A model generated the notes under the pieces. It searched no databases. It saw only the letters and a list, made by a program, of their open reading frames with translations, and was not told the origin of the DNA. A stretch of 50,202 bases of DNA, taken from positions 1 to 50,202 of IMG/VR virus record IMGVR_UViG_3300049846_002441; one strand, written 5' to 3'. Made by a program: the position numbers and the translations under genes. This document shows, piece after piece, positions 7,772 through 49,824 of the stretch; positions within the stretch are counted from its first letter, which is position 1, and each line of letters starts with the position of its first letter. The stretch is from a virus. Its lineage: Duplodnaviria > Caudoviricetes.

Positions 7772-8743
7772 TCAGTAAGCCTTCAAAGTCTCAGGGTTGT
7801 TGCCGACGCCGAAGATGCGCCGCGCGTAATCTTCACCAACACGCCCCGGTGAGCCGAAGTCGCCGCGATCCTTCCGCTCCTCCAGTGCCATCTCAATGCC
7901 GCGCGGCAGATCGATCTCGGCGCCGCGCTCGTACGCCGGCCAGTTGTCGGCGGTCAGACACGCGAAGAAATCGCGGATCATCGCGCGCCAAACAATCAAA
8001 CCCCAATCGAGCGTTATGACCGACGGTGTGACGATGTTCACAAGATGTGGTGGTGCGTTTTCTTGGCAGATCCACGCGAAGTCGTGCGGCGGCGCACCCT
8101 CAACGCGCGTGATGATATCGAGTTGCGACGCGGCTTGAATGAACCACCCGCCGTCGTGCACCTTCATCGCGATCGAGCGCGGGTGTACAGATCCGCTCGT
8201 GGTTTTGTAGTCGCGCACGCACACTTTGTCGTCGATCCTGATGCGCACGTCCGGCCGCGATTTCAACCAAATGCCCGTGTCCTCGTCTTTCACGAAATAC
8301 GAGAGCTCGTTTTGACCTTCTGTTGTCAGCCGGTGGCACTCATCATCTGCCCAAAGGGCGTCGCGCATCACCAGAACGCGCGCCATTTGATCCGGTGTGA
8401 GACAAACGGCGCCGGACTCCCTCGCCTCATTCCTAAGATATCTTTTGCGAGCGGCAGGCGTATTCTTGTCGACCGCAACAACGAGGCCTTGCCAGTTCTC
8501 CTCAAGAGCCGCCGCATGTGCGGCGGTGCCGAGATCGAAGCGCGTTACGCTATCGGAGGGGCGATCCGGGTTCAGGTACGAGTCGAACCACATCACGCGC
8601 GGGCACTCTTGGTAAAGCGCGATCGCCATCGAGGCGCTGAACGAAGGCCCATCAGCGCAATCGGCGTGATACCAGTCGTTCGGCATCTCGTAGACGCCGG
8701 GTTCGGTGATTTTCTCGCCGTAGCGGATTTTGGTGATTTTCAT
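7772..8743 (-). CDS. PD-(D/E)XK exonuclease VIII/RecE-like (DUF3799)
   Basis: PGVYEMPNDWYHAD, FSAS, LGTAAH, NELS, KSRPD, RDYKTT, QAA. The track start at 9517 is antisense to the GapR-like gene. Confidence 0.88.
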   Translation of the reverse strand: MKITKIRYGEKITEPGVYEMPNDWYHADCADGPSFSASMAIALYQECPRVMWFDSYLNPDRPSDSVTRFDLGTAAHAAALEENWQGLVVAVDKNTPAARKRYLRNEARESGAVCLTPDQMARVLVMRDALWADDECHRLTTEGQNELSYFVKDEDTGIWLKSRPDVRIRIDDKVCVRDYKTTSGSVHPRSIAMKVHDGGWFIQAASQLDIITRVEGAPPHDFAWICQENAPPHLVNIVTPSVITLDWGLIVWRAMIRDFFACLTADNWPAYERGAEIDLPRGIEMALEERKDRGDFGSPGRVGEDYARRIFGVGNNPETLKAY

Positions 8744-8813
8744 TGGTTCGTCTCGTTGCACAGACAGTTCTACGCCTTCAAAACAAAATCGCAACAAAAA
8801 AGCATCGGGGCAA

Positions 8814-8842
8814 TTGCAAATTTCCTCGTTAACAAATATGAA
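8814..8842 (+). promoter_or_regulatory. Putative sigma70-type rightward promoter at the main divergence point
   Basis: TTGCAA-17 nt-TATGAA; the spacer holds GTTAAC. Confidence 0.5.
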
Positions 8843-8846
8843 CGAT

Positions 8847-8926
8847 CTGCCGCTTTCGGGCGGCAGCTTCCTCTCGTTGCAGGACGAAGCGCAGGCGGCG
8901 GGGCCTCTCTCCGGCGCTCCGCCGCC
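8847..8926 (+). ncRNA. Putative three-hairpin leader/antisense RNA
   Basis: Hairpin 8847-8866 (UUCG loop), seed CUUCCUCUCGUUGCAGG 8867-8883, 11-bp stem 8894-8926 with CUCUCUCC loop. Confidence 0.5.
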
Positions 8927-8950
8927 ACACAAACCCTGAAAGGAGTAAAT

Positions 8951-9520
8951 ATGGCCCGAAGAAAAAATCCCCGAACGGACCCGAATGAGACTGAGGCCGA
9001 CGAGGCCGAGCAGGCGCGCTCGAACCAGCCCGGCAAGCGCGACCTGGCGCACCACCTCAAGGAAATCTCCGCCGCGAAGCAGCGCAAGGCCGACGCGGAT
9101 ATGGCGCTGGCGTCGAAATACTCTGCCGCGGAGGAGTGCGGGCTCGACAAGAAGGCGATCAAGCACCTGCTGAAGCTCCGCGACCAGGACAGCGAAAAGT
9201 CGAAGGCGGAATTCCAGACCCTCATCAAATACCTGCAGTGGATGGATATGCCGATTGGCGCGCAGTTGCACTTCTTCGACGATCCGACAAAGTCGCCGGA
9301 AGAAACCGCGATCGCGGAGGGTCGCCAGGCCGGCAAAGAGGGCGCGTCGGCGAACACGAACCCTTATCCGGAAGGCTCGAAGTTGTACCCTCGCTGGGAA
9401 GAGGGTCGAATGCTCGGCCAGGCAGATCTGGTGAACGGCGCCGGTAAGGTGACACCCATCGCCGCCGGGAAGAAAAAGCGCGGCCGGCCCCCGAAGGGCC
9501 AGCTGGCGGAACTGCATTGA
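8951..9520 (+). CDS. GapR (DUF2312)-like DNA-binding domain fused to an Rmf/CrpP-like C-terminus
   Basis: AAGGAG SD; KYSAAEECGLDKKAIKHLLKLRDQD...IKYL (GapR-like); EGRQAGKEG..NPY..WEEG (Rmf-like); basic tail KKKRGRPPK. Confidence 0.75.
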   Translation: MARRKNPRTDPNETEADEAEQARSNQPGKRDLAHHLKEISAAKQRKADADMALASKYSAAEECGLDKKAIKHLLKLRDQDSEKSKAEFQTLIKYLQWMDMPIGAQLHFFDDPTKSPEETAIAEGRQAGKEGASANTNPYPEGSKLYPRWEEGRMLGQADLVNGAGKVTPIAAGKKKRGRPPKGQLAELH

Positions 9521-12501: not shown

Positions 12502-13131
12502 ATGACCTGGCCATTCGACCCGCACCCACCGCTTTCGTATGACGTGATCTTGGCCGACCCGCCGTGGCACTTCGAAAACTACTCGGCGAAGGGTGAACGC
12601 AAGGGTGCGCGGCGACACTACGCCACGCTTGGCTTCGATGAGATCGCCGCAATGCCCGTGTCAAAGCTCGGCCGCGGCGACTGCATCCTCTTCATGTGGT
12701 GTTGCTGGCCGACGCTGCCGCAAGCCGTTGATGTTTTGGAGAGATGGGGCTTTCGGTATGTGACCGGCGGCGCGTGGCACAAGCGAACTTCGACCGGGAA
12801 ATCGGCCTTCGGGACCGGCTATGTGATGCGATCGGCGACTGAGCCGTATCTCATCGGCACGCTCGGAAATCCAAAAACCGTTCGCGACGTACGAAACGTG
12901 ATTGAAACTTCCGACGCGTCTGTGATAGACGCAGAGCGACGAGAGCATTCGCGCAAGCCGGAGGTGCAATATGAAACCTTAGAGCGAATGTTCCCCGCCG
13001 CCCTCCGCCGCATCGAGCTTTTCGCTCGAAATCAGCGACCAAAATGGGATGCGTGGGGGAACGAAACCAAGAAATTCGGCGCAGCGCCGAATGAAGTGCC
13101 TGCAACCAAGCAACGAAAGGACGCAGCATGA
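12502..13131 (+). CDS. MT-A70 family adenine methyltransferase
   Basis: VILADPPW, LFMW, WGFRY, GTGYVMRSATE, EHSRKP, IELFAR, WGNE. Confidence 0.93.
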   Translation: MTWPFDPHPPLSYDVILADPPWHFENYSAKGERKGARRHYATLGFDEIAAMPVSKLGRGDCILFMWCCWPTLPQAVDVLERWGFRYVTGGAWHKRTSTGKSAFGTGYVMRSATEPYLIGTLGNPKTVRDVRNVIETSDASVIDAERREHSRKPEVQYETLERMFPAALRRIELFARNQRPKWDAWGNETKKFGAAPNEVPATKQRKDAA

Positions 13132-18935: not shown

Positions 18936-19562
18936 CTACACCTCCAATACGACTTGCTCAGGCACCGGCACAAACTCCGGCCGCTCCAGTGCGCCGCCGA
19001 TCGACAGGAAGGGTGAGCGTTGAAACGGCACAGGCACCTCGCACGCCTCGACGACGCCCGGGATCTCGCACAGCCAAAGCCGCTTGGTGGATCCGTCGAG
19101 CATGAGAACGTCAGTTGCCGGGATCTTGCGGCGCGCGCACTCGCGCCTGATCCGCGCTCCGCGCTCCGCGCGCACCACCGCATCAATATCGGGGACGTCT
19201 TCACCCCGCCCCGCCCGGAAATATGTGCCTGTCACCACCGACTCACCATCGGCGAAGCGCACCAACACCGCGCGCGGCTCAAGGAACGTGTGCCGCTTCG
19301 GCCGCACCACAATGCCCGCCGCGTTCTTGCGGCCGAACCACTTCGGCACAAGCCGATATGTGGCGCATGCCTCACCATAGGACAGCCGGGTGTTGAGGCG
19401 CGGCACGGGCGCTTTGGGCGAGGCTTGCTTCTGCATCTGACGCTCAAGAGCACCGTGCGACGACGCCAGCCGTTCCGCCAACTGGCGCCAATGCTCCGGC
19501 GTGTCGATCTCCACTGCCTCTTGCAAGGCGCGCTGCGCCGCCGTCATGATTTGGGTATTCAT
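18936..19562 (-). CDS. Hypothetical protein
   Basis: ATGA overlap with the upstream methyltransferase stop. Confidence 0.65.
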   Translation of the reverse strand: MNTQIMTAAQRALQEAVEIDTPEHWRQLAERLASSHGALERQMQKQASPKAPVPRLNTRLSYGEACATYRLVPKWFGRKNAAGIVVRPKRHTFLEPRAVLVRFADGESVVTGTYFRAGRGEDVPDIDAVVRAERGARIRRECARRKIPATDVLMLDGSTKRLWLCEIPGVVEACEVPVPFQRSPFLSIGGALERPEFVPVPEQVVLEV

Positions 19563-21304
19563 GCCGACACCGTGAGCAGAACAGTACGAACGTCCGTTCC
19601 GGCGAACGTGCCCGCCGGCAACTCCTCCCAACTGTCGGCGATGGGCTGAAGTTCGCGCTGTTGCCGGGGCCCGTTCGCGCAGATCGCCACAAGGCGCCCT
19701 CCCGGCTTCAAGAACTGCCGCGCGTGCAAAACATGGCGAATGTCCGAACCGTTCTCAAACGGCGGGTTCATCAGCACCGCATCGAACTTTCCCAAGTCAC
19801 CGTTGCATTGCAAAAAGTCCGCGCGGTGAATGTCGAAGTTGTCCGAATTTGCGTACATCTGCAGATTGCGCAGCGCCTCCAGCCTTTGAACAAGCTGGTC
19901 GTTGATTTCTACCGCCACCACACGCACGCAATCTGCGCCTGTGGCGTCATCCCAAATCGCCTTAACGAGCTCGCCGGTGCCAGCGCTCGGCTCTAGGATC
20001 CGCAACCCACTCGCCCGCTTGCCCGGCAGGCGCGCCACCATCTGCCGCGCCACGTCGCGCGGCGTCGGGAACAACTGGTTCGCCGTCACCACCTGCACGC
20101 CGCCAGCCTTGAGCGTTTGCTTGATGGCGTCGAAGTCTGTCGGCGCCGAGGGCGCGCGCGGAGCTTCGGCCGGCGGCGTGCCGATCTCGGCAAGATAGAA
20201 GCCGCAGCCGCAGCCGGATTCGGTCAGGCGCCCATCTGCGCGCGCTTGCTCAACCTCTGCCCTCGTCATGACGCCTTTTACCTTGTCGAGTGGAACGATA
20301 GAGGGAAATGTGCGCCCACGGTCGCCGCTGTATGACATGCGCACCGACACCGACACGCGGTTGACCTTGCAGACATACGCCCAACCCCCGCGCGTGTGCC
20401 CCGGCGCCTGCCAGCAACGCACAGCGCCGCCGACTTCCGGGCCCTTCTTGTCAGTCTCCAGGCCGCCCGCTTCACCCAGCATGGTGCGTTCATACAGAAG
20501 GCGGTTATTGGTGTGGTCGAGCCATCGTTGCCAGTGCTCGATCACCGCCGGGAGCGCCACCCGCCGCTGACGCGCAACTTCGGCGACGTCCATATTCCCG
20601 CGATCCGGCTGAAGCGCGCTCCATGCAGAGAACCGCTTACCATCCGGCGCCGTGATCGTGTCGCCGCACGACTCCGCAACGTTCGCGTAAGCGGTCGCAA
20701 TCTCGCGCGTGAGGCTGTTACGCGACCAAAACGCAAGCCGCTTTTCAGCCTCGGTCTTTTGCTTCGCGAACTTCCGCGCGTCAGATTCAAGCCCCTTGAT
20801 GCGCCGCGCGCGCACCGCCGGCAGTTCCTTGTATTTGGCGTGAGCGACCGCACCGGCGGCGCGCGCGACCCAATATTTCGAGGTTTCCCAAAGCCTAACC
20901 GTCTTGTTCATGCCCGATTTGATGCGCTCCGCATCGCGGCGCGCCCGCCGCTCCGAGTGGTGGCCCACGAGAATCGGCTGACCAAACGGGATCCCGTCAG
21001 CAATCGCCGCGACCGCGTCGCGCGCCCGCGCTGCATCTGCGAGCCGCTTTTCGCCGTAGTCGTCGAAGCGTGCCGCTCGATCTTCGGCGCGCTCGGTTAG
21101 CGTTGTGTCTTCGTCGCCGATTTCACCGCAGAGCTCGAGCAGTAAGTCCGCACGGCCCGGCGTCCACATCGGCGCCACAAAAAGTTCTTGCCTGGGCGCC
21201 CACTTGAACCCGGCCGCCTTCACGCGCGCATAGGTTCCCGCGTCAAGCCGCGTGCTCGAATAGAGCCGCAATTTGTTGTCCTCTGGTGAGTATGTCGCCT
21301 GCAT
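19559..21304 (-). CDS. DUF3560 domain fused to an N6-adenine-type methyltransferase
   Basis: ATYSPEDNKLRLY, IPFGQPILVGHHSE (DUF3560); LFPTP, ILEPSAGTG, MNPPF. Confidence 0.92.
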   Translation of the reverse strand: MQATYSPEDNKLRLYSSTRLDAGTYARVKAAGFKWAPRQELFVAPMWTPGRADLLLELCGEIGDEDTTLTERAEDRAARFDDYGEKRLADAARARDAVAAIADGIPFGQPILVGHHSERRARRDAERIKSGMNKTVRLWETSKYWVARAAGAVAHAKYKELPAVRARRIKGLESDARKFAKQKTEAEKRLAFWSRNSLTREIATAYANVAESCGDTITAPDGKRFSAWSALQPDRGNMDVAEVARQRRVALPAVIEHWQRWLDHTNNRLLYERTMLGEAGGLETDKKGPEVGGAVRCWQAPGHTRGGWAYVCKVNRVSVSVRMSYSGDRGRTFPSIVPLDKVKGVMTRAEVEQARADGRLTESGCGCGFYLAEIGTPPAEAPRAPSAPTDFDAIKQTLKAGGVQVVTANQLFPTPRDVARQMVARLPGKRASGLRILEPSAGTGELVKAIWDDATGADCVRVVAVEINDQLVQRLEALRNLQMYANSDNFDIHRADFLQCNGDLGKFDAVLMNPPFENGSDIRHVLHARQFLKPGGRLVAICANGPRQQRELQPIADSWEELPAGTFAGTDVRTVLLTVSA

Positions 21305-23898: not shown

Positions 23899-24447
23899 TC
23901 ACATAAAGCCAAGCGACCGCAGCGACGCGCACCCATTCGCGCCAACGACGATATGATCGTGACACGCGATGTCAACCGCGCGCAGCGCTTCAACAATGTC
24001 TTTCGTCTCGCTGATATCCGCCCGGCTTGGCGATGGGTCGCCGGACGGGTGATTGTGCGCCAAGATCACGCCGGTCGCGTTTAGAACCACCGCGCGCCGC
24101 ACAATCTCGCGCCGGTGTATCCAGCAATTATCAGCCGTCCCCTCGGCCAAAACTTCGTCGGCAATCAGCCGGTTTTTCGTGTCACAATAGAGGACGCGGA
24201 CTTGTTCGCGCGGCAGATCCGCCATCCGCGCCATGAGATACCGCGTCACTTCCGCATAGGACGTCATCGACTCGCGCTTGCGCAGCCGCGCGGCCGTGAA
24301 TTCCTCCGCAAGCGCCAAAATCGCCGCCAACTTCGCCCGCGTGTCGGCTGTCAAACCCTCCGCCGCGTATGCTTGCGAAACATCGCTAAAACCCTCGATT
24401 TCCGCCGTGTCGCCTAACAAAACCCGCAAGTGTCGCAAATTCCGCAC
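23899..24447 (-). CDS. RadC-like JAB domain protein
   Basis: LPREQVRVL, HRREIVRRA, HNHPSGDPSPSRADI, DHIVVG; GGGAGG before GTG. Confidence 0.92.
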   Translation of the reverse strand: MRNLRHLRVLLGDTAEIEGFSDVSQAYAAEGLTADTRAKLAAILALAEEFTAARLRKRESMTSYAEVTRYLMARMADLPREQVRVLYCDTKNRLIADEVLAEGTADNCWIHRREIVRRAVVLNATGVILAHNHPSGDPSPSRADISETKDIVEALRAVDIACHDHIVVGANGCASLRSLGFM

Positions 24448-24489
24448 GTGTGATCCTCCCGTTGCGAAGGGCATTTGAGCGCGAAAGCG

Positions 24490-27630: not shown

Positions 27631-28779
27631 ATGCCGCAGCCGACAGAATACGTACCGGGGTACGATTTTTCCGAGTTTCAGGGGGCAAATCCGACAACGC
27701 CGCTGCCGGGCGACCGGCTGGACACGGAGTTGAACTCGATCGCGACGTCGGTCGGGGAAATTATCACGAATTTGGGCGCAATTCAGCGCGACGACGGTGA
27801 TCTGGGGAACGCGACGGTCGGGTTCGACCAGCTGGACGCGGACGTTCGAGCGCTTTTTGGCCTGCAAGACGGTGTGCCGCGGGGCCCGTGGGTCACCGCG
27901 ACGGCTTACGTGATCGGGGACTTGGTGACGCAAAGCGGCGTTTCGTACGCGTGCGTTGTTGCGCACACGTCGGGGACGTTCGCGACGGATTTGGCGGCGA
28001 ACAAGTGGATGTCGGTGACGCCGGTCTATACCTCGTTCGGCGCGTCGGTTCTTGGCGCGGCGGACGCGTCGGCGGCACAGACGCTACTCGGGATCTCGAC
28101 GTTCATAAAGACGCTGCTCGACGACGCTGATGCGCCCACCGCCCAAACAACGCTCGGAATTTCCACGTTCATCAAGACGCTTTTAGATGACGTGGACGCG
28201 GCTACGGCGAGGACGACTTTGGGCGTGGTTTCGGCGGACTCGCTGAATTCCTTAACGACGGACGGCACGATCGGCGCACATGCCGACTTGATACCGTTCG
28301 TGGACGCATCGGACTCGAACGCTTCGAACAAGGGAACCGTTTCATCGCTCTTTTCGAACGCGATCACGAACAGCACCGACACATCGCCGGCAACGCCCGC
28401 CAATATGGGCGAATACGAGGTGATGACGCGCAAGATTTCCGACGGCTCGTTGCACAAGATGCTGCTTTCGGAGCTCGGCCAGCTGCCGCCCGGCGCGATC
28501 GTTGCGGGATTTGCCACGATCGACTTTGCGTCGGTCGCGGACAACGCCACGTCGGCGGCCTCGACGATCTCGATTTCCGGCCTTGTGGCCGGCGACTTCG
28601 TGTTGGGCCTGTCCGCGAGCGGAAACATCGACACGACGGCCGGGGTGAAATTGATAGGGTCGGTAAGCGGCGCGAACACCGTTTCGGTTTACCTGCACAA
28701 CGATAGCGGTAGTGCGTTTGACGCTAGTTCGCAGACGATTTACGCGGTTTGCCTGAAGAAGTCAGCCGTCGGCCTCTAA
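27631..28779 (+). CDS. Tail fibre/spike protein
   Basis: PLPGDRLDTELN N-terminus; carbohydrate-binding-like WVTATAYVIGDLV..YACVVAHTSG; 22-aa repeats AQTxLGISTFIKTLLDD. Confidence 0.8.
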   Translation: MPQPTEYVPGYDFSEFQGANPTTPLPGDRLDTELNSIATSVGEIITNLGAIQRDDGDLGNATVGFDQLDADVRALFGLQDGVPRGPWVTATAYVIGDLVTQSGVSYACVVAHTSGTFATDLAANKWMSVTPVYTSFGASVLGAADASAAQTLLGISTFIKTLLDDADAPTAQTTLGISTFIKTLLDDVDAATARTTLGVVSADSLNSLTTDGTIGAHADLIPFVDASDSNASNKGTVSSLFSNAITNSTDTSPATPANMGEYEVMTRKISDGSLHKMLLSELGQLPPGAIVAGFATIDFASVADNATSAASTISISGLVAGDFVLGLSASGNIDTTAGVKLIGSVSGANTVSVYLHNDSGSAFDASSQTIYAVCLKKSAVGL

Positions 28780-41259: not shown

Positions 41260-42377
41260 TGGCAGCGCGGCGCATCTACTCGGATTCATCGGCCAACGCG
41301 ATCGTCCAGAACATCATGTCGATGCTGAACGGCTCGCCTGAGGAGGCGATGGCGCAAGCGCAGATCGCACGCCAGGTCGCCGACGTCGACAAGATGCGCG
41401 GCGAGATGACGGCGCGCGACAGTCTGGCCAACGTCTTCTCGAACTTCACGGACCCAGCGCAAATCGCGCCGAATGCGGGTTCGGCTTTTGGGGAGGCGTT
41501 TCGTGCCGGCGAAGACCCGTCGCGCGTTGCTGCGGCACTTTTGGGGTACGCGGCGAACGCGGGCGGGGACAACAACATCGTCGCCCGGTCGTATGTCGGC
41601 TCCGGCCACGCGATCCGGCCGCAAGACGCGTTCACCGTGCCGCGGCAGAACGAGCTCGCGATCGATGAGGAGCGCCAAAAAGACGAGGCTCAGCGCTCGG
41701 CGCTCGTCAACGCGTTCAACATGAATGAGGCGGACAACGAGGCCGCGAACGATAGGTTCAACCGCGCGCCGCTGAATGTCGCACCGGGCCACACGGTTTA
41801 CAGGTTCAATCCGGACGGGACGCGAGAAGAATTTGTAGGCTCGCCCAGGGCGGCATCGGCTGGCCCAAGCGCGGTGCCACTCGATGTCGACCCGAACGAC
41901 TTCGGCAAGATGGGGTTGATGCTAGACGGTCTGATCGGCAAAGCGCAGATGCCGCCCGAGTTGCGGCAGGAAGTTCTGCTCGCAGCGTCGAACCTATACC
42001 AAAAAACGCGGAACGCCCCAGCCTCGCTTGCGAAGGCATTGAGCGACATCGCGCAGATCGAGGTTGAGCCAGGCTGGTTCTCGAACTCAGAAGTCTACAA
42101 GCGCAAGGGTGGCGCGGCACCATCGCCGCCCGGCGAGTCTGGCGTCGTCTTGCCGCTCAATCCGCCGAACGTGGACGGCATGACCTTCGCGCCCGCCGCT
42201 CCGGCGGAGGTGTTCACGCAGCCGAATGTGACGCCGGACGCTGACCCGAGCGCCGCTCTGCCGCAAGGCAACGTCGAGCAAGGCGGAGCCGGCGTCGAGG
42301 GCGAGATCCAGCGCAACAAGAAGACTGGCGAAATGCGCATCATGAGGAATGGCCAATGGCAGCCGTACCAGCAATGA
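41259..42377 (+). CDS. Internal virion/ejection protein
   Basis: Position; C-terminal NKKTGEMRIMRNGQWQP. Confidence 0.7.
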   Translation: MAARRIYSDSSANAIVQNIMSMLNGSPEEAMAQAQIARQVADVDKMRGEMTARDSLANVFSNFTDPAQIAPNAGSAFGEAFRAGEDPSRVAAALLGYAANAGGDNNIVARSYVGSGHAIRPQDAFTVPRQNELAIDEERQKDEAQRSALVNAFNMNEADNEAANDRFNRAPLNVAPGHTVYRFNPDGTREEFVGSPRAASAGPSAVPLDVDPNDFGKMGLMLDGLIGKAQMPPELRQEVLLAASNLYQKTRNAPASLAKALSDIAQIEVEPGWFSNSEVYKRKGGAAPSPPGESGVVLPLNPPNVDGMTFAPAAPAEVFTQPNVTPDADPSAALPQGNVEQGGAGVEGEIQRNKKTGEMRIMRNGQWQPYQQ

Positions 42378-45300
42378 GTGGTTCATGGGAAACCGTCTAC
42401 GATCCGCGCCAGGGGCCGAAGTTGCCACCTAAGCCGAGCGATGTCATTGCCGAGGCGTTGGGGTCGGCGCAGTTTGCGCCGACTTCCGATTCTGGGGATT
42501 GGGAAACCGTTGCTCGGCCAACTCACTACGAGACGCCGATGGGGCCCGCTCGGTATGTCGGTGATGGTCTGCTTGAAGGCGTTGATGCCAACGGCGCGGG
42601 CTTTCTCGAGCACATTTCGCGGTTGCCGGCGAACCCGGTGTACAGCAAAGGCCCGCACGTCGGTTACGACCCGGCCCGGGTTGGGGTGTGGAAGGCGAGC
42701 GACATAAACGACTCCGATTTGAGCCGTAGGTTCATGGTCAATCTGAACGAGGCGGCGCACGTCAACTCGCTGGGCAGTGCCGTTGCGCAGCGCGTTGCTC
42801 GCGGGGCGGCCGACGCTGCCGGTTACGGACCGGAGGGCGACGCCGCGATCACAAAGCGACTGCAAGGCTACGAGCAGGAATTCCAAAACCTTCGGCCTTG
42901 GTACAAGGCGGACGACCCGTTGCAGGCGATCACCGAGCTCCTAACCGGCGTCGGCGGCACGGTCGCAGGCGCGGTGCTCGACCCAAGCTCTCTGGCCGGC
43001 GGTGTAGGCAAGAACGTGATCGAGACGTTCGGCCGCGGCGCGGCGGCAAACTCCGTCGCCGATGTCTTCACGCAATTGCTGAATATGGATTCGGGCGTGC
43101 AGACGGAGTTCAATCCGCAGGCAGAGCAATATGATCCGTCCACGGAAGATTTCACCCCGACGCTCGACGCACAGGGTCGGCCGCTTCCGCAAATGCAGGT
43201 GCGCGGATATGACCCCGTGCAGACGGCGCTCGCCGGGCTGATTGGCGGCGCGCTTCCAGTTGGTGTGGACGCGACATTCAACAAGGAAGCGCGTGAGCAA
43301 ATTGCGGCGCTCGTGCGTGCTGGCGTCGATCAGTTGAGATTCCGCCGAGGGGCCTCGTCGGCCGCGCCGCCCACTCCCGAGGAGATCGATATTGTGATGC
43401 GCGATCCAGAGATCCAGCGCATCCTCGAGGCTAGCGGTCAGGCGAATAGTCCGCGTGCGGATGAATTCGCCGATCGCATCGCGGCACGCAAGGCGGCCGA
43501 GGGTTCCAGGCCGGCACAGACTGACGTTTCCGAGGTTTCACCCAAAGCGGTGTTTGATGAGCTTGAGCGTCAGCGCGCTCTCAAAGAGCAGGGTGGGGAT
43601 GGCGACATCGACGCGGCATTTGTGCCGCCGGGGACTCCGCGCCAGGTGCCACCCGCGTTTACGGTCGACCGCGCGGGTGCGGCGCGGCCGGCGCAAGTGC
43701 AGGGAGCCAAAGCCAGGAGCGAGACTGACCCAGGATTGGAGCGCGCCGTCGAGCGCGCCGGGCCGAGAATGCTGCCTGCGCCCGGGCGCGCGGCGACAAA
43801 CCCGATGACGGATGAGGCGGTCGGCATTGCCGCCCGACAGATGGATCTCCGCCCAGAAGACGCCACGGCGCGACTGTTCCAAGGTGACCGGGTGACCGAG
43901 GAGCCATCAGCCCCTGGGCGGCTCGTTGGCCGTGAGGAGGCGCCGCCGATGGTCGCCGGTGCCATCGAAGGTCAGCGGCAGGCCAAGGGTGCGTTCGACC
44001 TGGCCGAGAGGCAGCGTGAGCGGCTGGTGGCCGGAGAGCCGCCGGAGCGCGTCAGGGACACGCAGGCGGCCGGGCTCGAGCGCGGTGTCGAGCCGGTGCG
44101 GGTCACCCTCGACGAGGGGAATCCGGTCAAGGTGCTGCGCACGCAGGTCATGCGCGATCGCGGCGGGGTGGAAACTGAGTTCGCCACGGTGCGCCGGTAT
44201 GACCCGCGGACGGACGAGTTCGAGCCGGACTCGATCGAGTATCAAGTGCCGGTGAAACGCCTGAAAGAGGGCAAGTACACGCCGGAGCCGCGGCGGGCGC
44301 AAGACTTCAGCCGTCGCGCCGAGGGGCCGCCTGCGCCGGAAAAGCCGCGCATGGCTGGCCCAGGGCGGCCTGAGCGCGAACCCGCGCAGACCTACCGCGC
44401 AACGGAGCCGGATCCCAACGAGCAGTTCCCGGCCGCAGGCGAGGGACGCTCGCCGCTTCCACCGCAGCCTGAGCGCACGACGCCGCCGCGTTATTCGACG
44501 GCGGAAGAGGTGATGCGCGATTTCCAGGCGCGTCAGAAGTCGCAGCAGCGGTCGGCTGAGTTCGAGCGCGAGGCGCGGGCATCGGCGCGCTACCGCGATG
44601 CGAAGACGTCGAACACCCCGAAGGGTACAGACGACGCCGGCCGTTGGCACGTAGACGAAGACGGGTTTGTGCTTTCAGACAAGGGTGGGCCAATCCTCTT
44701 CGCACAGCACGAACAGGCGGCGAAATGGATTATCAATAAGGGCCAGCGCAAGCCGAGCGATCAGAACTTCGAATTGACGAACCATCCGACGGCGAAGGCT
44801 GGTGTGTCGGTTCGCGAGACATCGCGCACGCCGCACCCCGAAGAGTTCAAAGGCAAGAAAGGTCTTGGAGATGAGGCGCCACGTGGCGCGGCCGGAGAGC
44901 GCTCCGAGCAGTCCTTCAAGAAGGAAGCTGGTGTAGAGGAGCCAGTTCGTCCAGCGGACGAAACCCAGGCGCCCGGGCCGTCGAGGGGTGAGGTCGCTGA
45001 GGCACCAACAACGGCTCGCGCTGACGAGGTGTCGCCCAAAGCGCGCCGCGAGGCGCCGGCCGAATCCGAAAGTGTTGTGACGGCGGCGGATCTTGCGGCC
45101 GAATTCGAGAAGAAGTTCGGGGTTGACGCGGACAGCTTGACGCCGAAAGAGCTCGCCGAGGCGATCTATCGCACCGCCAGCATGGAAAAGCGCGAAAAGC
45201 TCATGGACAAATTTTTGGGCTCTGATGACACGCCGGACATGCGCACGTTCGCAGCGAACACCTACCGCGAGGCGACAGGTAAGCAGCTGAGCCCGGGCAA

Positions 45301-47989
45301 AACGACGATCCGGGAGTTCAAGGAGAAGTTTCGCGAGTGGATCGATCAAGGTGCGCCGCGGCCGCCGCGCGACTACGCCGCTGAGATCGCGAAGCGTCGC
45401 GCGAAGGAATTCGAGGATCGGGGCTTTACTGAGGCCGACGCCGACGTCGCATTTGAGTTTGCGGCGCGCCTTAAGCACGCCAAGACCGAGAAGCAGTTCG
45501 CGAGGCTTCTTGAGTTGATCCCGGAATTTCAGGGCAGCGAGATCCGCGCGGTCGGCAAGATTCTTGGTGTCGAAATCCCGAAAGGAATGACCGCCGGTGC
45601 TGCGCTGTTGAAGATCAAGGAATCCGTGAACTTCAAGAACATCAAAGAGCGCGGGCCGATGACGATGTTCTCTGGCCCCGTGACACCGGAGATGCTGAAG
45701 CGCTTGGGTGAGATTTTGTTTGGCGGGCGCGCGGAGTGGATGAGGCATTTCGCGGAGAATGCCAAGATTTTCTCGACCGTTGCCAAGCCTGGCGAGGGGT
45801 TGAAGCGGCTCTGGCGCGGCAGCACATCGATGGGCCGCGCGGTGTTCTATTCGGCGGACGGGCGCGCGCGCGGCGCAGCTAAGCAGTTGAAGTCGAAGAC
45901 GTTGGAAGAGGTCGCCGATATGTTCCACGCCCCGGCCGGGAGCTCGAAGGCGGTTTCGCAGACCTACGAAGAGGCGGTGCAGGAAAAGGTCACGACCGCG
46001 ATGAACGACCTTTCGGAGATCCTGGAGCCGTTTCTCGCGGACAACGCGGCGCTCGAGCAGATCACGCGGATGGTGCAGTCCGGTGCCGGCGACCAACGAT
46101 CGGCGATGGGGAAGGCTGCGGCGGCCGTCCGGAAGGCGCTCCAAGACGAGCTCAAATACCTCAAAGAGGCCGGGGTCGAGATTGGTAACGTTCGGTCTGG
46201 TTATTTCCCGCGCGAGTTCGAGGACATGGCGGTGATGCGCAATCCTGAGGGCTTCCGGAAGGCGGTCGCGAAGGAGTACCGCATGACCGGGCTGGGCGCT
46301 GAAGAGGCGAATGCAGCAGCGGACGCGTTGCTTGACTCGGTGCTGCTCGGCGGCGCCGGTGCGGGCGTCTTCCGCGGTGGCGATGCCGGTGCGCGGCCGG
46401 CGTTCACTGCCGGGCGCGTGTTCGAGAAGGGGGCCGACGCGCGGCTGCGCGAGTTCTACATCCAGGATCCGGTTCGCGTTCTGGGTCAGTACTTCCATCG
46501 ATCGGCGCGCCGCGCTGAGGCGGCCAGGCGGTTCGGAGACAAATGGGAGAAGTGGGCCAAGCTCGAGCATCAAGTGCGCGAGGAGGTTGGCCCGAAAGAT
46601 GCGAGTCACGCAATCGACGATATGCGCGCGCTCGGCATGGTCGCGACCGGCATGAGGACGCACAAGATCAGCCCACGGCTGGTGAACGCTTCCGCGTGGA
46701 TTCGGGCGTGGACCGGCCTCTCACTGCTGGAAAAGGTCAGCATCTCGTCGCTGCAGGAGTTGGTGATGCCCGGTGTTCGCTCGGGCAATTTACTCGATCA
46801 GTTCAAAGGACTCGCGAAGGCCGGCTCAGAGGCGGCGCAAATGATCGGCGGGGGCAAGTCCCGCCGCATCGAGTTCGCCGAGGATTTGGGCATCATCTAT
46901 TCGAACCTTGGCAACAACATCCACGTCGCCCGCTTCTTTGGCGACGACCCGGGCTCGGTCTTCCTGCAGAAAGCAACGCGCAACTTCTTCCGCAACGTCG
47001 GGCTCGAGCAGCTGACCAACGCCACGCGGGCGATCGGCGCCGACACGGCGCAGGTATTCGTCCGCCGGATGGCGCTCGACATCGGCAAGGAGTGGGGCCG
47101 GTTGCACTTGCGCGAGCTCGGGATCCCGAACGAGAAGCAGGCTTCGTTCAAGAAGTGGCTCGAGCAATGGGATGATATGATGCCCGGCGCCGAAGACCTT
47201 CGGGCGAAGGGCGGAAAGTACGACGAAAACACTCGCATGTACCGCACTGCAATTTTGCGGATGGTGAACCAGTCGGTGCAGAACCCGACGCCGGCAACGA
47301 AGCCGACGTGGGCATCACACCCGCTCGGCGCGATTGTATTCCAGCTGAACGCGTTCAACTACGCATTCACGAAGAATGTTCTCGCGCGCGCACACCGGCG
47401 CGGCAAAGAGGCGCTCACCAACACGGAATTGGAGGCGATCGAGCGGGCGAAGCTGGCCGTCACGACGGTTGCGCCGCTGTTGCTCCTGTCGGCGTTCGGT
47501 GTTGGGATCTCCGTCGAGCGCGATCGCATCTTCCGCAAGAAGCGCGAGCCATCGTCAGCGGACAAGGAGGAGATCTTCGACGGCGGGCCGACGCGCGGTG
47601 AGTTCGTTGAAGGCGTTAGGCACGCATCGCGCATCGGCGCTTTCGGCGGCGCCGATCCGTGGGTGAACTTCTTCACGCAGGCGAAGTATGACAAAGACCC
47701 CGCATCGGCGCTGACCGGTCCAGCTGTTGGCGCCGGGCTCAACCTACTGTCACTGACGCCAGAGTTGCTTTGGTGGAATAGCGACAAAACGAACACGACG
47801 GAGCGCGAGGCGGCGAAGTACGCCTACGACTTCGCGATCGAGCCCGCGGCGAACTTGATGCTCAACACCGTGTTTCCGCCGATGTTGCCGTCAGCGTTGG
47901 CGACGCAAGCGCTCGGCTCCGGCGATGTGCGCGAAGAGTTCGTGTCGGCCGTCGCGGGCAAAGAACAGAAGCAGGAGAAGTACTGGTGA
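42374..47989 (+). CDS. Large internal virion/ejection protein (~1870 aa)
   Basis: ATGA overlap; size and position; GYFPR and helical C-terminal half; no muralytic motif recognised. Confidence 0.8.
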   Translation: MSGSWETVYDPRQGPKLPPKPSDVIAEALGSAQFAPTSDSGDWETVARPTHYETPMGPARYVGDGLLEGVDANGAGFLEHISRLPANPVYSKGPHVGYDPARVGVWKASDINDSDLSRRFMVNLNEAAHVNSLGSAVAQRVARGAADAAGYGPEGDAAITKRLQGYEQEFQNLRPWYKADDPLQAITELLTGVGGTVAGAVLDPSSLAGGVGKNVIETFGRGAAANSVADVFTQLLNMDSGVQTEFNPQAEQYDPSTEDFTPTLDAQGRPLPQMQVRGYDPVQTALAGLIGGALPVGVDATFNKEAREQIAALVRAGVDQLRFRRGASSAAPPTPEEIDIVMRDPEIQRILEASGQANSPRADEFADRIAARKAAEGSRPAQTDVSEVSPKAVFDELERQRALKEQGGDGDIDAAFVPPGTPRQVPPAFTVDRAGAARPAQVQGAKARSETDPGLERAVERAGPRMLPAPGRAATNPMTDEAVGIAARQMDLRPEDATARLFQGDRVTEEPSAPGRLVGREEAPPMVAGAIEGQRQAKGAFDLAERQRERLVAGEPPERVRDTQAAGLERGVEPVRVTLDEGNPVKVLRTQVMRDRGGVETEFATVRRYDPRTDEFEPDSIEYQVPVKRLKEGKYTPEPRRAQDFSRRAEGPPAPEKPRMAGPGRPEREPAQTYRATEPDPNEQFPAAGEGRSPLPPQPERTTPPRYSTAEEVMRDFQARQKSQQRSAEFEREARASARYRDAKTSNTPKGTDDAGRWHVDEDGFVLSDKGGPILFAQHEQAAKWIINKGQRKPSDQNFELTNHPTAKAGVSVRETSRTPHPEEFKGKKGLGDEAPRGAAGERSEQSFKKEAGVEEPVRPADETQAPGPSRGEVAEAPTTARADEVSPKARREAPAESESVVTAADLAAEFEKKFGVDADSLTPKELAEAIYRTASMEKREKLMDKFLGSDDTPDMRTFAANTYREATGKQLSPGKTTIREFKEKFREWIDQGAPRPPRDYAAEIAKRRAKEFEDRGFTEADADVAFEFAARLKHAKTEKQFARLLELIPEFQGSEIRAVGKILGVEIPKGMTAGAALLKIKESVNFKNIKERGPMTMFSGPVTPEMLKRLGEILFGGRAEWMRHFAENAKIFSTVAKPGEGLKRLWRGSTSMGRAVFYSADGRARGAAKQLKSKTLEEVADMFHAPAGSSKAVSQTYEEAVQEKVTTAMNDLSEILEPFLADNAALEQITRMVQSGAGDQRSAMGKAAAAVRKALQDELKYLKEAGVEIGNVRSGYFPREFEDMAVMRNPEGFRKAVAKEYRMTGLGAEEANAAADALLDSVLLGGAGAGVFRGGDAGARPAFTAGRVFEKGADARLREFYIQDPVRVLGQYFHRSARRAEAARRFGDKWEKWAKLEHQVREEVGPKDASHAIDDMRALGMVATGMRTHKISPRLVNASAWIRAWTGLSLLEKVSISSLQELVMPGVRSGNLLDQFKGLAKAGSEAAQMIGGGKSRRIEFAEDLGIIYSNLGNNIHVARFFGDDPGSVFLQKATRNFFRNVGLEQLTNATRAIGADTAQVFVRRMALDIGKEWGRLHLRELGIPNEKQASFKKWLEQWDDMMPGAEDLRAKGGKYDENTRMYRTAILRMVNQSVQNPTPATKPTWASHPLGAIVFQLNAFNYAFTKNVLARAHRRGKEALTNTELEAIERAKLAVTTVAPLLLLSAFGVGISVERDRIFRKKREPSSADKEEIFDGGPTRGEFVEGVRHASRIGAFGGADPWVNFFTQAKYDKDPASALTGPAVGAGLNLLSLTPELLWWNSDKTNTTEREAAKYAYDFAIEPAANLMLNTVFPPMLPSALATQALGSGDVREEFVSAVAGKEQKQEKYW

Positions 47990-48546
47990 TCGATCGCACG
48001 GACACGAAGTACGTGATCGTCAGCGCGAGCGGCACCCCGCCGGCAATGGACTTCGGCGCGCAGAGGCTCGCTCTCTGGTACGAGGGGAAGCGATCACGCT
48101 TCTTTTGCCCGTGGCATTTTGTCATCCGCAGAAACGGCAAGGTCGAAGAGGGGCGGTCGGTGCAGTACCGTGGTGAGGCTCCGCACGGGTTCAAGGCGAT
48201 CTCACTCTCAGTATTGCTGGTCGGTGGCCAGAGTGAAGTGAAGTATTGCCGCCCATCACCCAACTATAGCAACGAACAGCGCGCTGCGCTCGAGTCGCTG
48301 CTGAGGCGCCTCAGCGCGCGCTACCCGGGCGTCAAAATCCTGGGATTGAGTCAGGTGCCGGGGGTGGAGATTCGATCAAATCCGGGATTTGATGTGGCGG
48401 CGTGGGCGTCTTCGCGAGACATTACTACCTCTAAAGAGAGCAGCGATGGAGCAACTAATCCCCCTCATTCCGGCACTGGCGCCGGTGTTCAACTTGGTGA
48501 TTTGGCCGATTTACAGGCATTTCATGGCGAAGATCGAAGCGCTTGA
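47986..48546 (+). CDS. T7-lysozyme/Amidase_2-fold protein, apparently non-catalytic
   Basis: HFVIRRNGKVEEGR, SLSVLLVGG, Q.AAL..LL..L...YP, PGFDV align to T7 gp3.5, but the zinc ligands are replaced. Confidence 0.82.
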   Translation: MIDRTDTKYVIVSASGTPPAMDFGAQRLALWYEGKRSRFFCPWHFVIRRNGKVEEGRSVQYRGEAPHGFKAISLSVLLVGGQSEVKYCRPSPNYSNEQRAALESLLRRLSARYPGVKILGLSQVPGVEIRSNPGFDVAAWASSRDITTSKESSDGATNPPHSGTGAGVQLGDLADLQAFHGEDRSA

Positions 48547-48670
48547 GGTGGAAAACCGGGCGCTTCGCGAGAGGTTGCAAGAGCTCGAGATGACACTCCA
48601 TACTGAGTTTTGCAGGCGCGAGACGTGTGACAAACTGACGTCCGAACTGCTGGCTGCAGCAAAAGGCTAA
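48446..48670 (+). CDS. Holin/antiholin-like membrane protein
   Basis: N-terminal hydrophobic segment plus coiled coil, in the lysis cassette. Confidence 0.6.
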   Translation: MEQLIPLIPALAPVFNLVIWPIYRHFMAKIEALEVENRALRERLQELEMTLHTEFCRRETCDKLTSELLAAAKG

Positions 48671-48682
48671 AGGAGATCTAAA

Positions 48683-49279
48683 ATGATTCGCAACACCTTG
48701 GTTTTAACCGTAGTCGCCCTCTCAGCGCTCGCACCGCTCGCCGCGCGCAGCGTGCAGATTGCCGAGCACCCCGAGCAGCGGATTGTAATGGCGCTGGAGG
48801 ACGGCATTCCGGCGGCAGTTGGTCAAGACTTGAAAGATATCACCCCGACGCCGAAGCCGGCGGTTGAGCCCGTAGACAAAACGTCGATCGCGCTCGGGCC
48901 GGCGTTTGACGCGCTTGTTGGTGTCTTCTTGACCTTCGGGTCGGGCATTGTTGGTTGGCTGTCTTGGTGGAAGCAGAAGTTGTTCAAGGCCGAGATGGAC
49001 ACGAAGCAACGAGAGCTTCTCCACGAGGGGATCAAGAACGGAATTCTCTATGCGGCCGAAAAGATCAAGCAGCGGGTCGGCTCCGGCATGAAGATCGATG
49101 TCGGCAACGAGATCATCGCGATCACAGGCCAGTATATGGTCGATAATTCCGCCAAAGTGCTGGGCTATTTCAAGCTGAACGGGCTCGACAAGGGTGATAT
49201 GACCGACCTTGTGACGGCGAACGCGGCAAAGCTCGGCATATCGCTCGACACGGGCAAGTTCGTCGGCGCGGCAGGTTGA
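48683..49279 (+). CDS. Holin-like membrane protein
   Basis: AAGGAG SD; signal-like N-terminus, internal TM helix, QRELLHEGIKNG. Confidence 0.6.
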   Translation: MIRNTLVLTVVALSALAPLAARSVQIAEHPEQRIVMALEDGIPAAVGQDLKDITPTPKPAVEPVDKTSIALGPAFDALVGVFLTFGSGIVGWLSWWKQKLFKAEMDTKQRELLHEGIKNGILYAAEKIKQRVGSGMKIDVGNEIIAITGQYMVDNSAKVLGYFKLNGLDKGDMTDLVTANAAKLGISLDTGKFVGAAG

Positions 49280-49280
49280 C

Positions 49281-49679
49281 ATGCAGTACGTCAAAATTGG
49301 CGGGCTTGTGATCGCCGGGCTGCTCGCCTGGTGGTTCTTCAGCTGGGCGACGTCGCAGATCCGGCGCGGCTATGAGGCCGACGCGCTACAGGCTGAGATT
49401 GACCGCAAGGCCGAGCTTGATGCGGCGGACGCGAAGGCGTACCAAGAAGGCCTCAACGACGGCGCGGCGTCGGCCAAGACCGTCGAGCGCATCAAGGTCG
49501 TCTACAAGAAGGTGCCAGTCCATGCTCAGAGCTCTGACAGTTGCAGCATTGACCCTCGCGCTATCGAGTTGCGGAACGCCGCGCGTCGAGAGGGTTACCG
49601 AGAAGCGGTGCCAGATCCCGGCGCATCTGGCTCTGACACCGACGGAGATGGCGCAACTCCCGCCGAAGCTCACCCTTGA
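49281..49679 (+). CDS. i-spanin (Rz-like)
   Basis: N-terminal TM helix, coiled coil, late Cys (SCSID). Confidence 0.78.
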   Translation: MQYVKIGGLVIAGLLAWWFFSWATSQIRRGYEADALQAEIDRKAELDAADAKAYQEGLNDGAASAKTVERIKVVYKKVPVHAQSSDSCSIDPRAIELRNAARREGYREAVPDPGASGSDTDGDGATPAEAHP

Positions 49680-49824
49680 GGACACCTGGGTCGCTGGGCT
49701 GAACGACGACCAGTATACGCTTGCGCTGATCGATAAGCTGGCGCGGTTGCAGGCGTGGGTTAAGACTCACTGCAACCAGGTTGTGTCGGCGCCGATCCGC
49801 AAGAAGTCGTTTTGGGACTTCTGA
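49522..49824 (+). CDS. o-spanin lipoprotein (Rz1-like)
   Basis: Lipobox LALSS-C; overlaps the i-spanin in another frame; CQIPAHL. Confidence 0.82.
   Translation: MLRALTVAALTLALSSCGTPRVERVTEKRCQIPAHLALTPTEMAQLPPKLTLEDTWVAGLNDDQYTLALIDKLARLQAWVKTHCNQVVSAPIRKKSFWDF

Follow-up and report, generated by a model that had tools for sequence, protein, structure and literature searches.

A zinc-less protein of predicted T7-lysozyme fold in the endolysin slot of a phage lysis cassette

Introduction

Models of lysis in Gram-negative hosts have three parts: a holin, an endolysin that cuts the cell wall, and spanins, which require that the wall has already been cut. We describe here an amidase-like open reading frame (ORF) at 47986–48546 (+) of the IMG/VR virus record IMGVR_UViG_3300049846_002441 (Duplodnaviria; Caudoviricetes), which stands where the second of these parts is normally encoded. 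The window, that is, the stretch of DNA analysed, is the whole record of 50,202 bp. The closest described systems are T7 lysozyme (gp3.5) and T7-lysozyme-like zinc amidase endolysins such as that of Ts2631, which resemble the product of this ORF in fold and domain length, include its best match in both sequence and structure, and are likewise cytoplasmic proteins without a signal sequence from podovirus-type phages. Compared with both, the protein described here has all of its zinc ligands and its catalytic Tyr and Lys replaced, and it carries a 36-residue tail, predicted to be disordered, that overlaps the next gene. Furthermore, its gene lies in a late lysis cassette, whereas that of T7 lies among early DNA-metabolism genes.

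Loss of activity within this fold is known from animals. The peptidoglycan recognition proteins (PGRPs) PGRP-SA, PGRP-SD and PGRP-I alpha share the fold (Foldseek E 1e-6 to 1e-5) and have lost the catalytic Cys; their amidase activity is gone and they have been retained for peptidoglycan binding. Such non-catalytic PGRPs usually lose the Cys ligand only and keep the groove. The phage protein, by contrast, is altered at all of its catalytic positions and at three more that are near-invariant in the family, a search for a PGRP-specific segment in it found none, and its context is a phage lysis cassette. The best-known model of the part that a dead hydrolase might play in lysis is that of EnvC and NlpD, degenerate LytM factors that have lost their metal ligands and activate host cell-wall amidases. 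This is an analogy only; EnvC and NlpD have an unrelated fold (M23/LytM) and are bacterial rather than phage-encoded. T7 deprived of its endolysin is reported to regain lysis either by way of gp16, a second enzyme carried in the virion, or without any muralytic enzyme that is known (Heineman, Bull and Molineux, 2009; PMC2680503). The phage there is likewise a podovirus, but its gene had been deleted in the laboratory and this lowered its fitness, whereas the present case is a natural one in which the fold has been kept. We found no account, in the portion of the literature surveyed, of T7-lysozyme-like proteins that lack the zinc ligands and are encoded in the lysis cassettes of phages.

Results

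A predicted amidase fold without the catalytic residues of its family

The amidase-like gene and its parts are as follows.

47973–47977 (+): Shine-Dalgarno-like AGGAG, 8 nt 5' of the GTG start, read directly
47986–48546 (+): zinc-less T7-lysozyme-fold (Amidase_2/PGRP fold) ORF of 186 amino acids (aa), from Pfam, PHROG, phmmer, AlphaFold2 and Foldseek
47986–48435 (+): folded domain, residues 1–150, in which the AlphaFold2 blocks lie mostly at a predicted local distance difference test score (pLDDT) of 92–98, with one at 72
48446–48546 (+): overlap of 101 nt, in which the tail of the amidase frame (residues ~154–186) runs over the first 33 codons of a 74-aa gene

Among all PDB chains, T7 lysozyme was the sole strong phmmer match to the ORF (1lba_A, E 1.4e-13; 1aro_L, E 1.5e-13), followed by weak matches to PGRPs. 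The HMMER alignment pairs ifvHcsat of T7 lysozyme with vivSasgt of the ORF, vgYhf with cpWhf, lraHhev with ilgLsqv, and pKaCpsfd with iRsNpgfd. All five catalytic positions are thus replaced, H17 by S13, Y46 by W43, H122 by L121, K128 by R130 and C130 by N132, where the T7 residue numbers come from counting along chain 1aro_L in the printed alignment and constitute a direct reading with no statistics attached. The zinc triad (His17, His122 and Cys130 in T7 numbering) is therefore absent, its places being taken by S13, L121 and N132, while the exchange of the catalytic Lys for Arg is conservative. The initial annotation of this DNA had named H17S, Y46W, H122L and C130N from an alignment made by eye; each of these was right, and the change of the catalytic Lys can be added to them. 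In the Ts2631 endolysin, the single changes H30N, Y58F, H131N and C139S are each reported to lower activity 'dramatically' (PMC4573324). The equivalents of all four residues are changed together in the ORF, which supports the loss of the family's catalysis. Within two residues of the three ligand positions, the query (P0001) and two relatives, P0002 and P0003, share no conserved His, Cys, Asp or Glu.

The family assignment was examined at several levels. PHROG 822 ('amidase', phrog_822) matches the ORF at E 1.1e-26, and Pfam Amidase_2 (PF01510) aligns with residues 7–117 only, at 22.9 bits, under the gathering cut-off of 26. AlphaFold2, run with a 115-row alignment, returned a model with a mean pLDDT of 85.3 and a predicted template modelling score of 0.78; 130 residues have a pLDDT of at least 90, residues 1–150 lie mostly above 90, and the tail (151–186) is at about 50. 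When this model was submitted to Foldseek, 1aro and 1lba ranked first (TM-scores of 0.83–0.86 by target, with 1lba at 0.86), and further matches were the amidase endolysins 7f5i and Ts2631 (6fhg, rank 4), PGRPs and AmpD. The earlier claim of an amidase fold is thus upheld by the 1lba match in sequence, by the model and by the Foldseek match of that model. The scaffold had also been described as intact, and this agrees with the confidence of the model and with the family alignment of 115 rows, in which the ORF keeps 15 of 19 near-invariant positions (those that never vary or are conserved at 90% or more), the exceptions being H32, G42, Y43 and N70 of the family. Judged from the sequence and the model, the amidase/PGRP fold appears intact and the family chemistry gone, and the protein is a predicted pseudo-enzyme, which should be unable to bind the catalytic zinc or to hydrolyse the MurNAc-L-Ala bond by the family mechanism.

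The GTG start of the gene overlaps the TGA stop of an upstream 1877-aa gene (GTGA). Its ORF is intact and has a strong Shine-Dalgarno sequence, both of which speak against decay. The GC content at third codon positions (GC3) outside the overlap, in the part encoding the domain, is 0.73, as in other genes of the phage, which points the same way. Hydropathy revealed no signal or signal-arrest-release (SAR) segment, and no slippery site was seen by eye that would fuse the ORF by frameshifting to the 1877-aa or the 74-aa protein.

Relatives and the age of the ligand loss

When 1.84 billion representatives were scanned in full with HMMER, 747 matched at E ≤1e-3, and only the query and P0002 fell below 1e-30. 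The census of ligands and the family alignment cover the best 150 of these 747, a ranking that is biased towards zinc-less proteins as the query is itself zinc-less. Within this set the His-His-Cys triad is kept by 123 proteins and 5 others are truncated, while the remaining 22, among them the query, have at least one ligand substituted. All three ligands are absent in 11 of the 150, again including the query (P0001, P0003, P0046, P0049, P0055, P0063, P0101, P0104, P0131, P0133 and P0147). Loss of the whole triad occurs in at least three separate groups of the tree, and several of these proteins have the Cys replaced by Asn (NPGF in place of CPxF).

P0002 is 52% identical to the query, lacks its N-terminus, and has W, H, R and N at positions 46, 122, 128 and 130 (T7 numbering), while in P0003, at 40% identity, positions 17, 46, 122, 128 and 130 are occupied by C, F, Q, R and N; at the five catalytic positions P0046 has S, G, R, G and Y. 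In the numbering of the ORF, C41-P42, R130 and N132 are identical in the query, P0002 and P0003, and position 43 is aromatic (W/F) in all three, while positions 13 (S, missing, C) and 121 (L, H, Q) vary. In a quick maximum-likelihood tree of 148 rows and 145 columns, in which many forks are unresolved and from which P0136 and P0137 were left out (less than 80% domain coverage), the query pairs with P0002 (Shimodaira–Hasegawa-like approximate likelihood ratio test, SH-aLRT, 84), and this pair is joined by P0003 (93), then P0046 (84), and then P0049 with one canonical row (86). The query, P0002, P0003 and P0046 thus form a zinc-less clade. The terminal branch of the query has a length of 0.61, against a median of 0.5. 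Across the tree the zinc-less state requires 15 changes, and at least 3 of them cannot be avoided given the well-supported branches.

Fresh breaks do occur in this family: P0036 and P0057 sit beside near-identical canonical sisters and have garbled C-termini. The group of the query does not have this appearance. The initial annotation had asked whether homologues carry the same substitutions, and W/F46, R128 and N130 are indeed common to P0002 and P0003. It had also allowed that all close homologues might be catalytic and this copy decaying, which the zinc-less state of the nearest relatives and the ordinary branch length of the query argue against. As these relatives carry the same substitutions at 40–52% identity, retention is favoured over decay, and the comparison argues for a ligand loss that is old and has been kept over the long term. 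A conserved scaffold around a remodelled cleft is what a retained pseudo-enzyme looks like, and the pattern argues for one kept by selection in a small phage lineage.

Other collections added few zinc-less proteins. A word-index search for close relatives returned the query itself only, GTDB genomes held no relatives of the protein, and relatives were present at 76 loci in IMG/VR (all ≤38% identical) and 20 in JGI metagenomes (all ≤36%). Of these 96 loci, 90 keep the triad and 4 are cut by contig ends; one, on a 1.8-kb contig (L093), is alone in being substituted, and another (L077) is a spurious out-of-frame match. In GenBank phages there were 1353 records, all below 60% identity and, among the matches listed, at 28–38%. 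A profile built from five zinc-less proteins found only canonical extra matches (P0154–P0158), and when cultured phages were searched by tblastn with three zinc-less relatives, no match exceeded 48% identity and the top three were canonical.

The lysis cassette and the overlapping tail

The genes on either side of the amidase-like ORF are listed here.

42356–47989 (+): 1877-aa virion (polyvalent-type) protein, from phrog_30152 and phrog_6958
48446–48670 (+): 74-aa protein, holin/antiholin-like, from hydropathy and sequence
48683–49279 (+): 198-aa protein, with a holin-like lead from hydropathy, phrog_17576 and Holin_LLH
49281–49679 (+): i-spanin candidate of 132 aa, from phrog_2536 and a hydrophobic N-terminus
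49522–49824 (+): o-spanin candidate of 100 aa, from the lipobox LSSC, phrog_456 and phrog_1275

The order on the plus strand is therefore the amidase-like gene followed by those for the 74-aa, 198-aa, 132-aa and 100-aa proteins, which is the standard arrangement of a cassette whose endolysin slot is taken by the amidase-like gene. The 74-aa protein has one transmembrane helix (residues 4–23) and a charged, coiled-coil-like C-terminus, and in Pfam it gives only sub-threshold matches of coiled-coil type. The 198-aa protein has an N-terminal signal or transmembrane segment and a second transmembrane segment (75–93); it matches phrog_17576 (E 7.5e-5), and a language-model search (Atlas) offers Holin_LLH at rank 17 with a score of 0.83, which serves as a lead only. 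The 132-aa protein begins with a hydrophobic segment and weakly matches the Rz-like spanin phrog_2536 (E 0.0032), while the 100-aa protein has the lipobox LSSC and weak matches to phrog_456 (E 0.0032) and phrog_1275 (E 0.017). Their genes overlap by 158 nt in different frames, and the pair can with moderate confidence be read as a two-component spanin, in the overlapped arrangement typical of such genes. Thus, the cassette head and its two membrane proteins are as first described, and the 'intact spanins' of that description are moderately supported, by Rz-like matches at E of about 3e-3, the lipobox and the gene overlap.

The amidase-like ORF overlaps the next gene (ATG at 48446) by the 101 nt first reported, which had been taken as a possible lost stop codon. 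Here the GC contents of the three codon positions in the downstream frame are 0.55, 0.30 and 0.73, and the third-position value of the amidase frame is 0.30, compared with 0.73 in the remainder of its gene. The overlap sequence appears to be shaped by the membrane-protein gene, which fits extension of the tail by overprinting. However, P0003 and P0046 carry tails of similar length, which speaks against overprinting, and the query tail LGDLADLQAFHGED aligns with LPDLSWIDRFYGEE of P0046 with a local score of 31. This score was reached in 13 of 20,000 shuffles, or about 0.05 after 73 comparisons, and is borderline. A C-terminal motif, L-x-D-L-x4-F-[HY]-G-E-[DE], is possibly common to the two tails. 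A conserved gene in the overlapping frame could also produce such likeness as a side effect, and a lost stop would be no more than a possible origin of the tail. Prediction of a complex between the amidase-like and 74-aa proteins scored 0.01, which gives no answer either way.

The search for another wall-cutting gene

About 157 ORFs were compared with Pfam and 25 with PHROGs. The Pfam set comprised chosen genes in groups of 5, 10, 10 and 10 together with 124 further ORFs of at least 60 aa (both strands of the early region and the plus strand of the late region). Neither comparison revealed a muralytic family besides that of the amidase-like gene. NCBIfam gave no matches in the search for a hidden endolysin, and a PDB sequence search with the 1877-aa, 198-aa and 382-aa proteins (the last described below) produced nothing meaningful. 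The initial statement that there is no other muralytic gene therefore stands at the level of Pfam and PHROGs, which does not extend to a novel fold.

The gene for the 1877-aa protein directly precedes the cassette. The protein matches phrog_30152 and phrog_6958 (virion structural protein) and no Pfam family; its Atlas neighbours are LPD38/LPD3, and it resembles the 'large polyvalent proteins'. Some look-alike clusters (scores of 0.86) have lysozyme or SLT modules in 12–38% of their members, which is a lead only, and no such module was found in the protein itself by Pfam or by the PDB sequence search. AlphaFold2 of the first 340 residues drew 2 alignment rows and gave an unusable model (pLDDT 37), and the C-terminus has no relatives in IMG/VR. 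Its one close homologue (P0161, 58% identity) lies on a 16-kb contig. The middle of the protein, about 650 residues, is rich in Pro, Glu and Arg, and residues 351–850 are 54–78% identical to P0161 per 50-residue block, while residues ~900–1000 show no conservation with it.

Judged by capsid, the isolates nearest to this phage are Microcystis phage Mae-Yong1326-1, with a capsid protein 39% identical, and Rhizobium phage RHph_N65, at 35%. In RHph_N65 a Peptidase_M15_4 'lysin A' gene directly follows the large injection proteins, and a separate GH108+PG_binding endolysin lies near the terminase. In Mae-Yong1326-1 (OP028995.1; loci L098/L099) the sole 'lysis' annotation belongs to the homologue of the giant protein (ORF38, 2441 aa), which is labelled a 'peptidoglycan transglycosylase'. 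In the published account this label is based on prediction only, and it finds no backing here: ORF38 has no Pfam, PHROG or SLT support and matches LPD1 only (E 1.8e-12). A six-frame search for SLT gave no match in the present phage, in Mae-Yong1326-1 or in RHph_N65.

One further gene was considered as an endolysin and set aside.

27631–28779 (+): 382-aa CBM_5_12 protein, directly 5' of the large terminase

A CBM_5_12 module (E 2.4e-7) is present in this protein, along with tandem repeats that are nearly identical to one another (LLGISTFIKTLLDD...). The protein is probably a tail fibre, in the place where the small terminase is usually expected.

The phage genome

The record is rated 100% complete with direct terminal repeats, which we measured at 127 bp, and it probably represents a working phage. 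The source is a freshwater sediment metagenome; a search of sequencing runs pointed to one DNA run as the probable source and listed no RNA run with this sequence. The phage is probably temperate, given an integrase gene. The following further features were noted.

297–1259 (−): tyrosine integrase
12502–13131 (+), 19559–21304 (−), 23899–24474 (−) and 1939–2712 (−): a cluster of genes of DNA-modification/anti-defence type, namely an MT-A70 methyltransferase, a DUF3560–methyltransferase fusion (581 aa), RadC and DUF5131
7772–9517 (−) and 8045–9520 (+): long ORFs on opposite strands of the same DNA

In the last pair the minus-strand ORF has a PD-(D/E)XK nuclease match and the better third-position GC, and the 491-aa plus-strand ORF is probably spurious.

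Discussion

We favour, with a probability of about one in two, the reading that the amidase-like gene encodes a conserved, non-enzymatic protein of the lysis module and that cleavage of the wall is supplied by something unrecognised. On this reading the protein would be made in the cytoplasm, because it has no signal or SAR sequence, and would be expressed together with the late and lysis genes, as suggested by its strong ribosome-binding site, by the coupling of its start to the virion gene and by the overlap of its 3' end with the 74-aa gene. For the same reason it would need the holin-like proteins, and would reach the wall once these had opened the membrane. There it may bind peptidoglycan, muropeptides or a partner protein without cutting, and so help or time the breakdown of the wall, with the bonds themselves being cleaved by another agent, either an unrecognised phage enzyme or the autolysins of the host.

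Several points weigh against this reading. The clade is tiny, with 3–5 known members, of which one is N-terminally truncated. Besides the catalytic residues, near-invariant ones of the family's groove are altered (H32Y, G42P and N70K), and peptidoglycan binding may therefore be lost or altered as well. Most ORFs of this phage match nothing, so that the lack of another endolysin only means that none is recognisable. Finally, one would expect a phage that has holin-like and spanin genes to require an endolysin, and to encode it at just this place.

That last consideration also favours the best surviving alternative, which is that the protein is still the endolysin and cuts through a rebuilt cleft, either without metal or with different ligands. 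The gene occupies the endolysin slot of a holin-like/spanin cassette, the genome is complete and encodes no further hydrolase that can be recognised, and the invariance of R130, N132, the aromatic residue at 43 and C41-P42 in all three core relatives hints that the site matters. However, none of the five catalytic residues is left, the clade varies at positions 13 and 121 as expected for relaxed sites, and Cys 41 is also found in canonical members (CGYH) and so is not the signature of a new nucleophile. To our knowledge no metal-independent amidase of the T7-lysozyme fold is known, and none turned up in the part of the literature surveyed. We consider continued activity of this kind unlikely.

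The position of the gene might instead connect it with what lies upstream, as a non-cutting wall-docking piece of the virion or ejection module that acts at entry together with the 1877-aa protein. Its start overlaps the stop of that virion gene, and the corresponding slot of RHph_N65, after the injection proteins, holds the Peptidase_M15_4 'lysin A' while a separate endolysin is encoded elsewhere. Set against this, the gene is followed on the same strand by the membrane-protein and spanin genes, the first of which it overlaps, and RHph_N65 is a distant phage whose slot protein is unrelated in sequence. A role confined to entry thus seems rather unlikely.

It could also be asked whether the protein does anything at all. 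A functionless relic of a former endolysin, in a phage lysed wholly by another gene, would be expected to look as this one does in some respects: the catalytic residues are all gone, the Pfam score (22.9) is under the cut-off of 26, the tail looks overprinted, and the family does contain fresh zinc-less breaks such as P0036 and P0057. The intact ORF with its strong Shine-Dalgarno sequence, the confidently predicted fold and conserved scaffold, the ordinary branch length and the same substitutions at 40–52% identity make such decay improbable. Last, the protein might perform only the second task of T7 lysozyme, binding and throttling a phage RNA polymerase or other polymerase, a role of T7 lysozyme mentioned at the outset and suggested by the closest solved structure, which includes the complex with T7 RNA polymerase (1aro), but Pfam scans of all long ORFs found no RNA polymerase family, so that the regulatory role does not apply, and the gene lies in a late lysis region rather than adjoining polymerase, endonuclease and primase genes as in Autographiviridae, which leaves this idea with very little to recommend it.

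A conserved non-enzymatic lysis protein, as we prefer to read this gene, raises a wider question about the family. It is conceivable, and we put it forward as a doubtful proposition, that T7-lysozyme-fold proteins lacking the zinc ligands make up a recurrent class in phage lysis, whose members break the wall and are not hydrolases of a known type. They might do so by freeing host autolysins, much as dead LytM factors act in cell division, or by a metal-free muralytic chemistry that evolved in the old cleft. If such a class were real, a holin/spanin cassette would be able to run without a conventional endolysin.

In summary, this is a complete phage that has the first and third parts of the Gram-negative lysis machinery and, in the slot between them, a conserved protein that appears unable to work in the way of its family. 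Either an unknown type of endolysin would be present among the unannotated genes or a dead hydrolase fold would have taken on a new role in lysis. Furthermore, as 11 of the best 150 family representatives lack the whole triad, and do so in several lineages, the 'amidase' and 'endolysin' labels that are assigned automatically, and the mining of such genes for enzybiotics, would sometimes be wrong.

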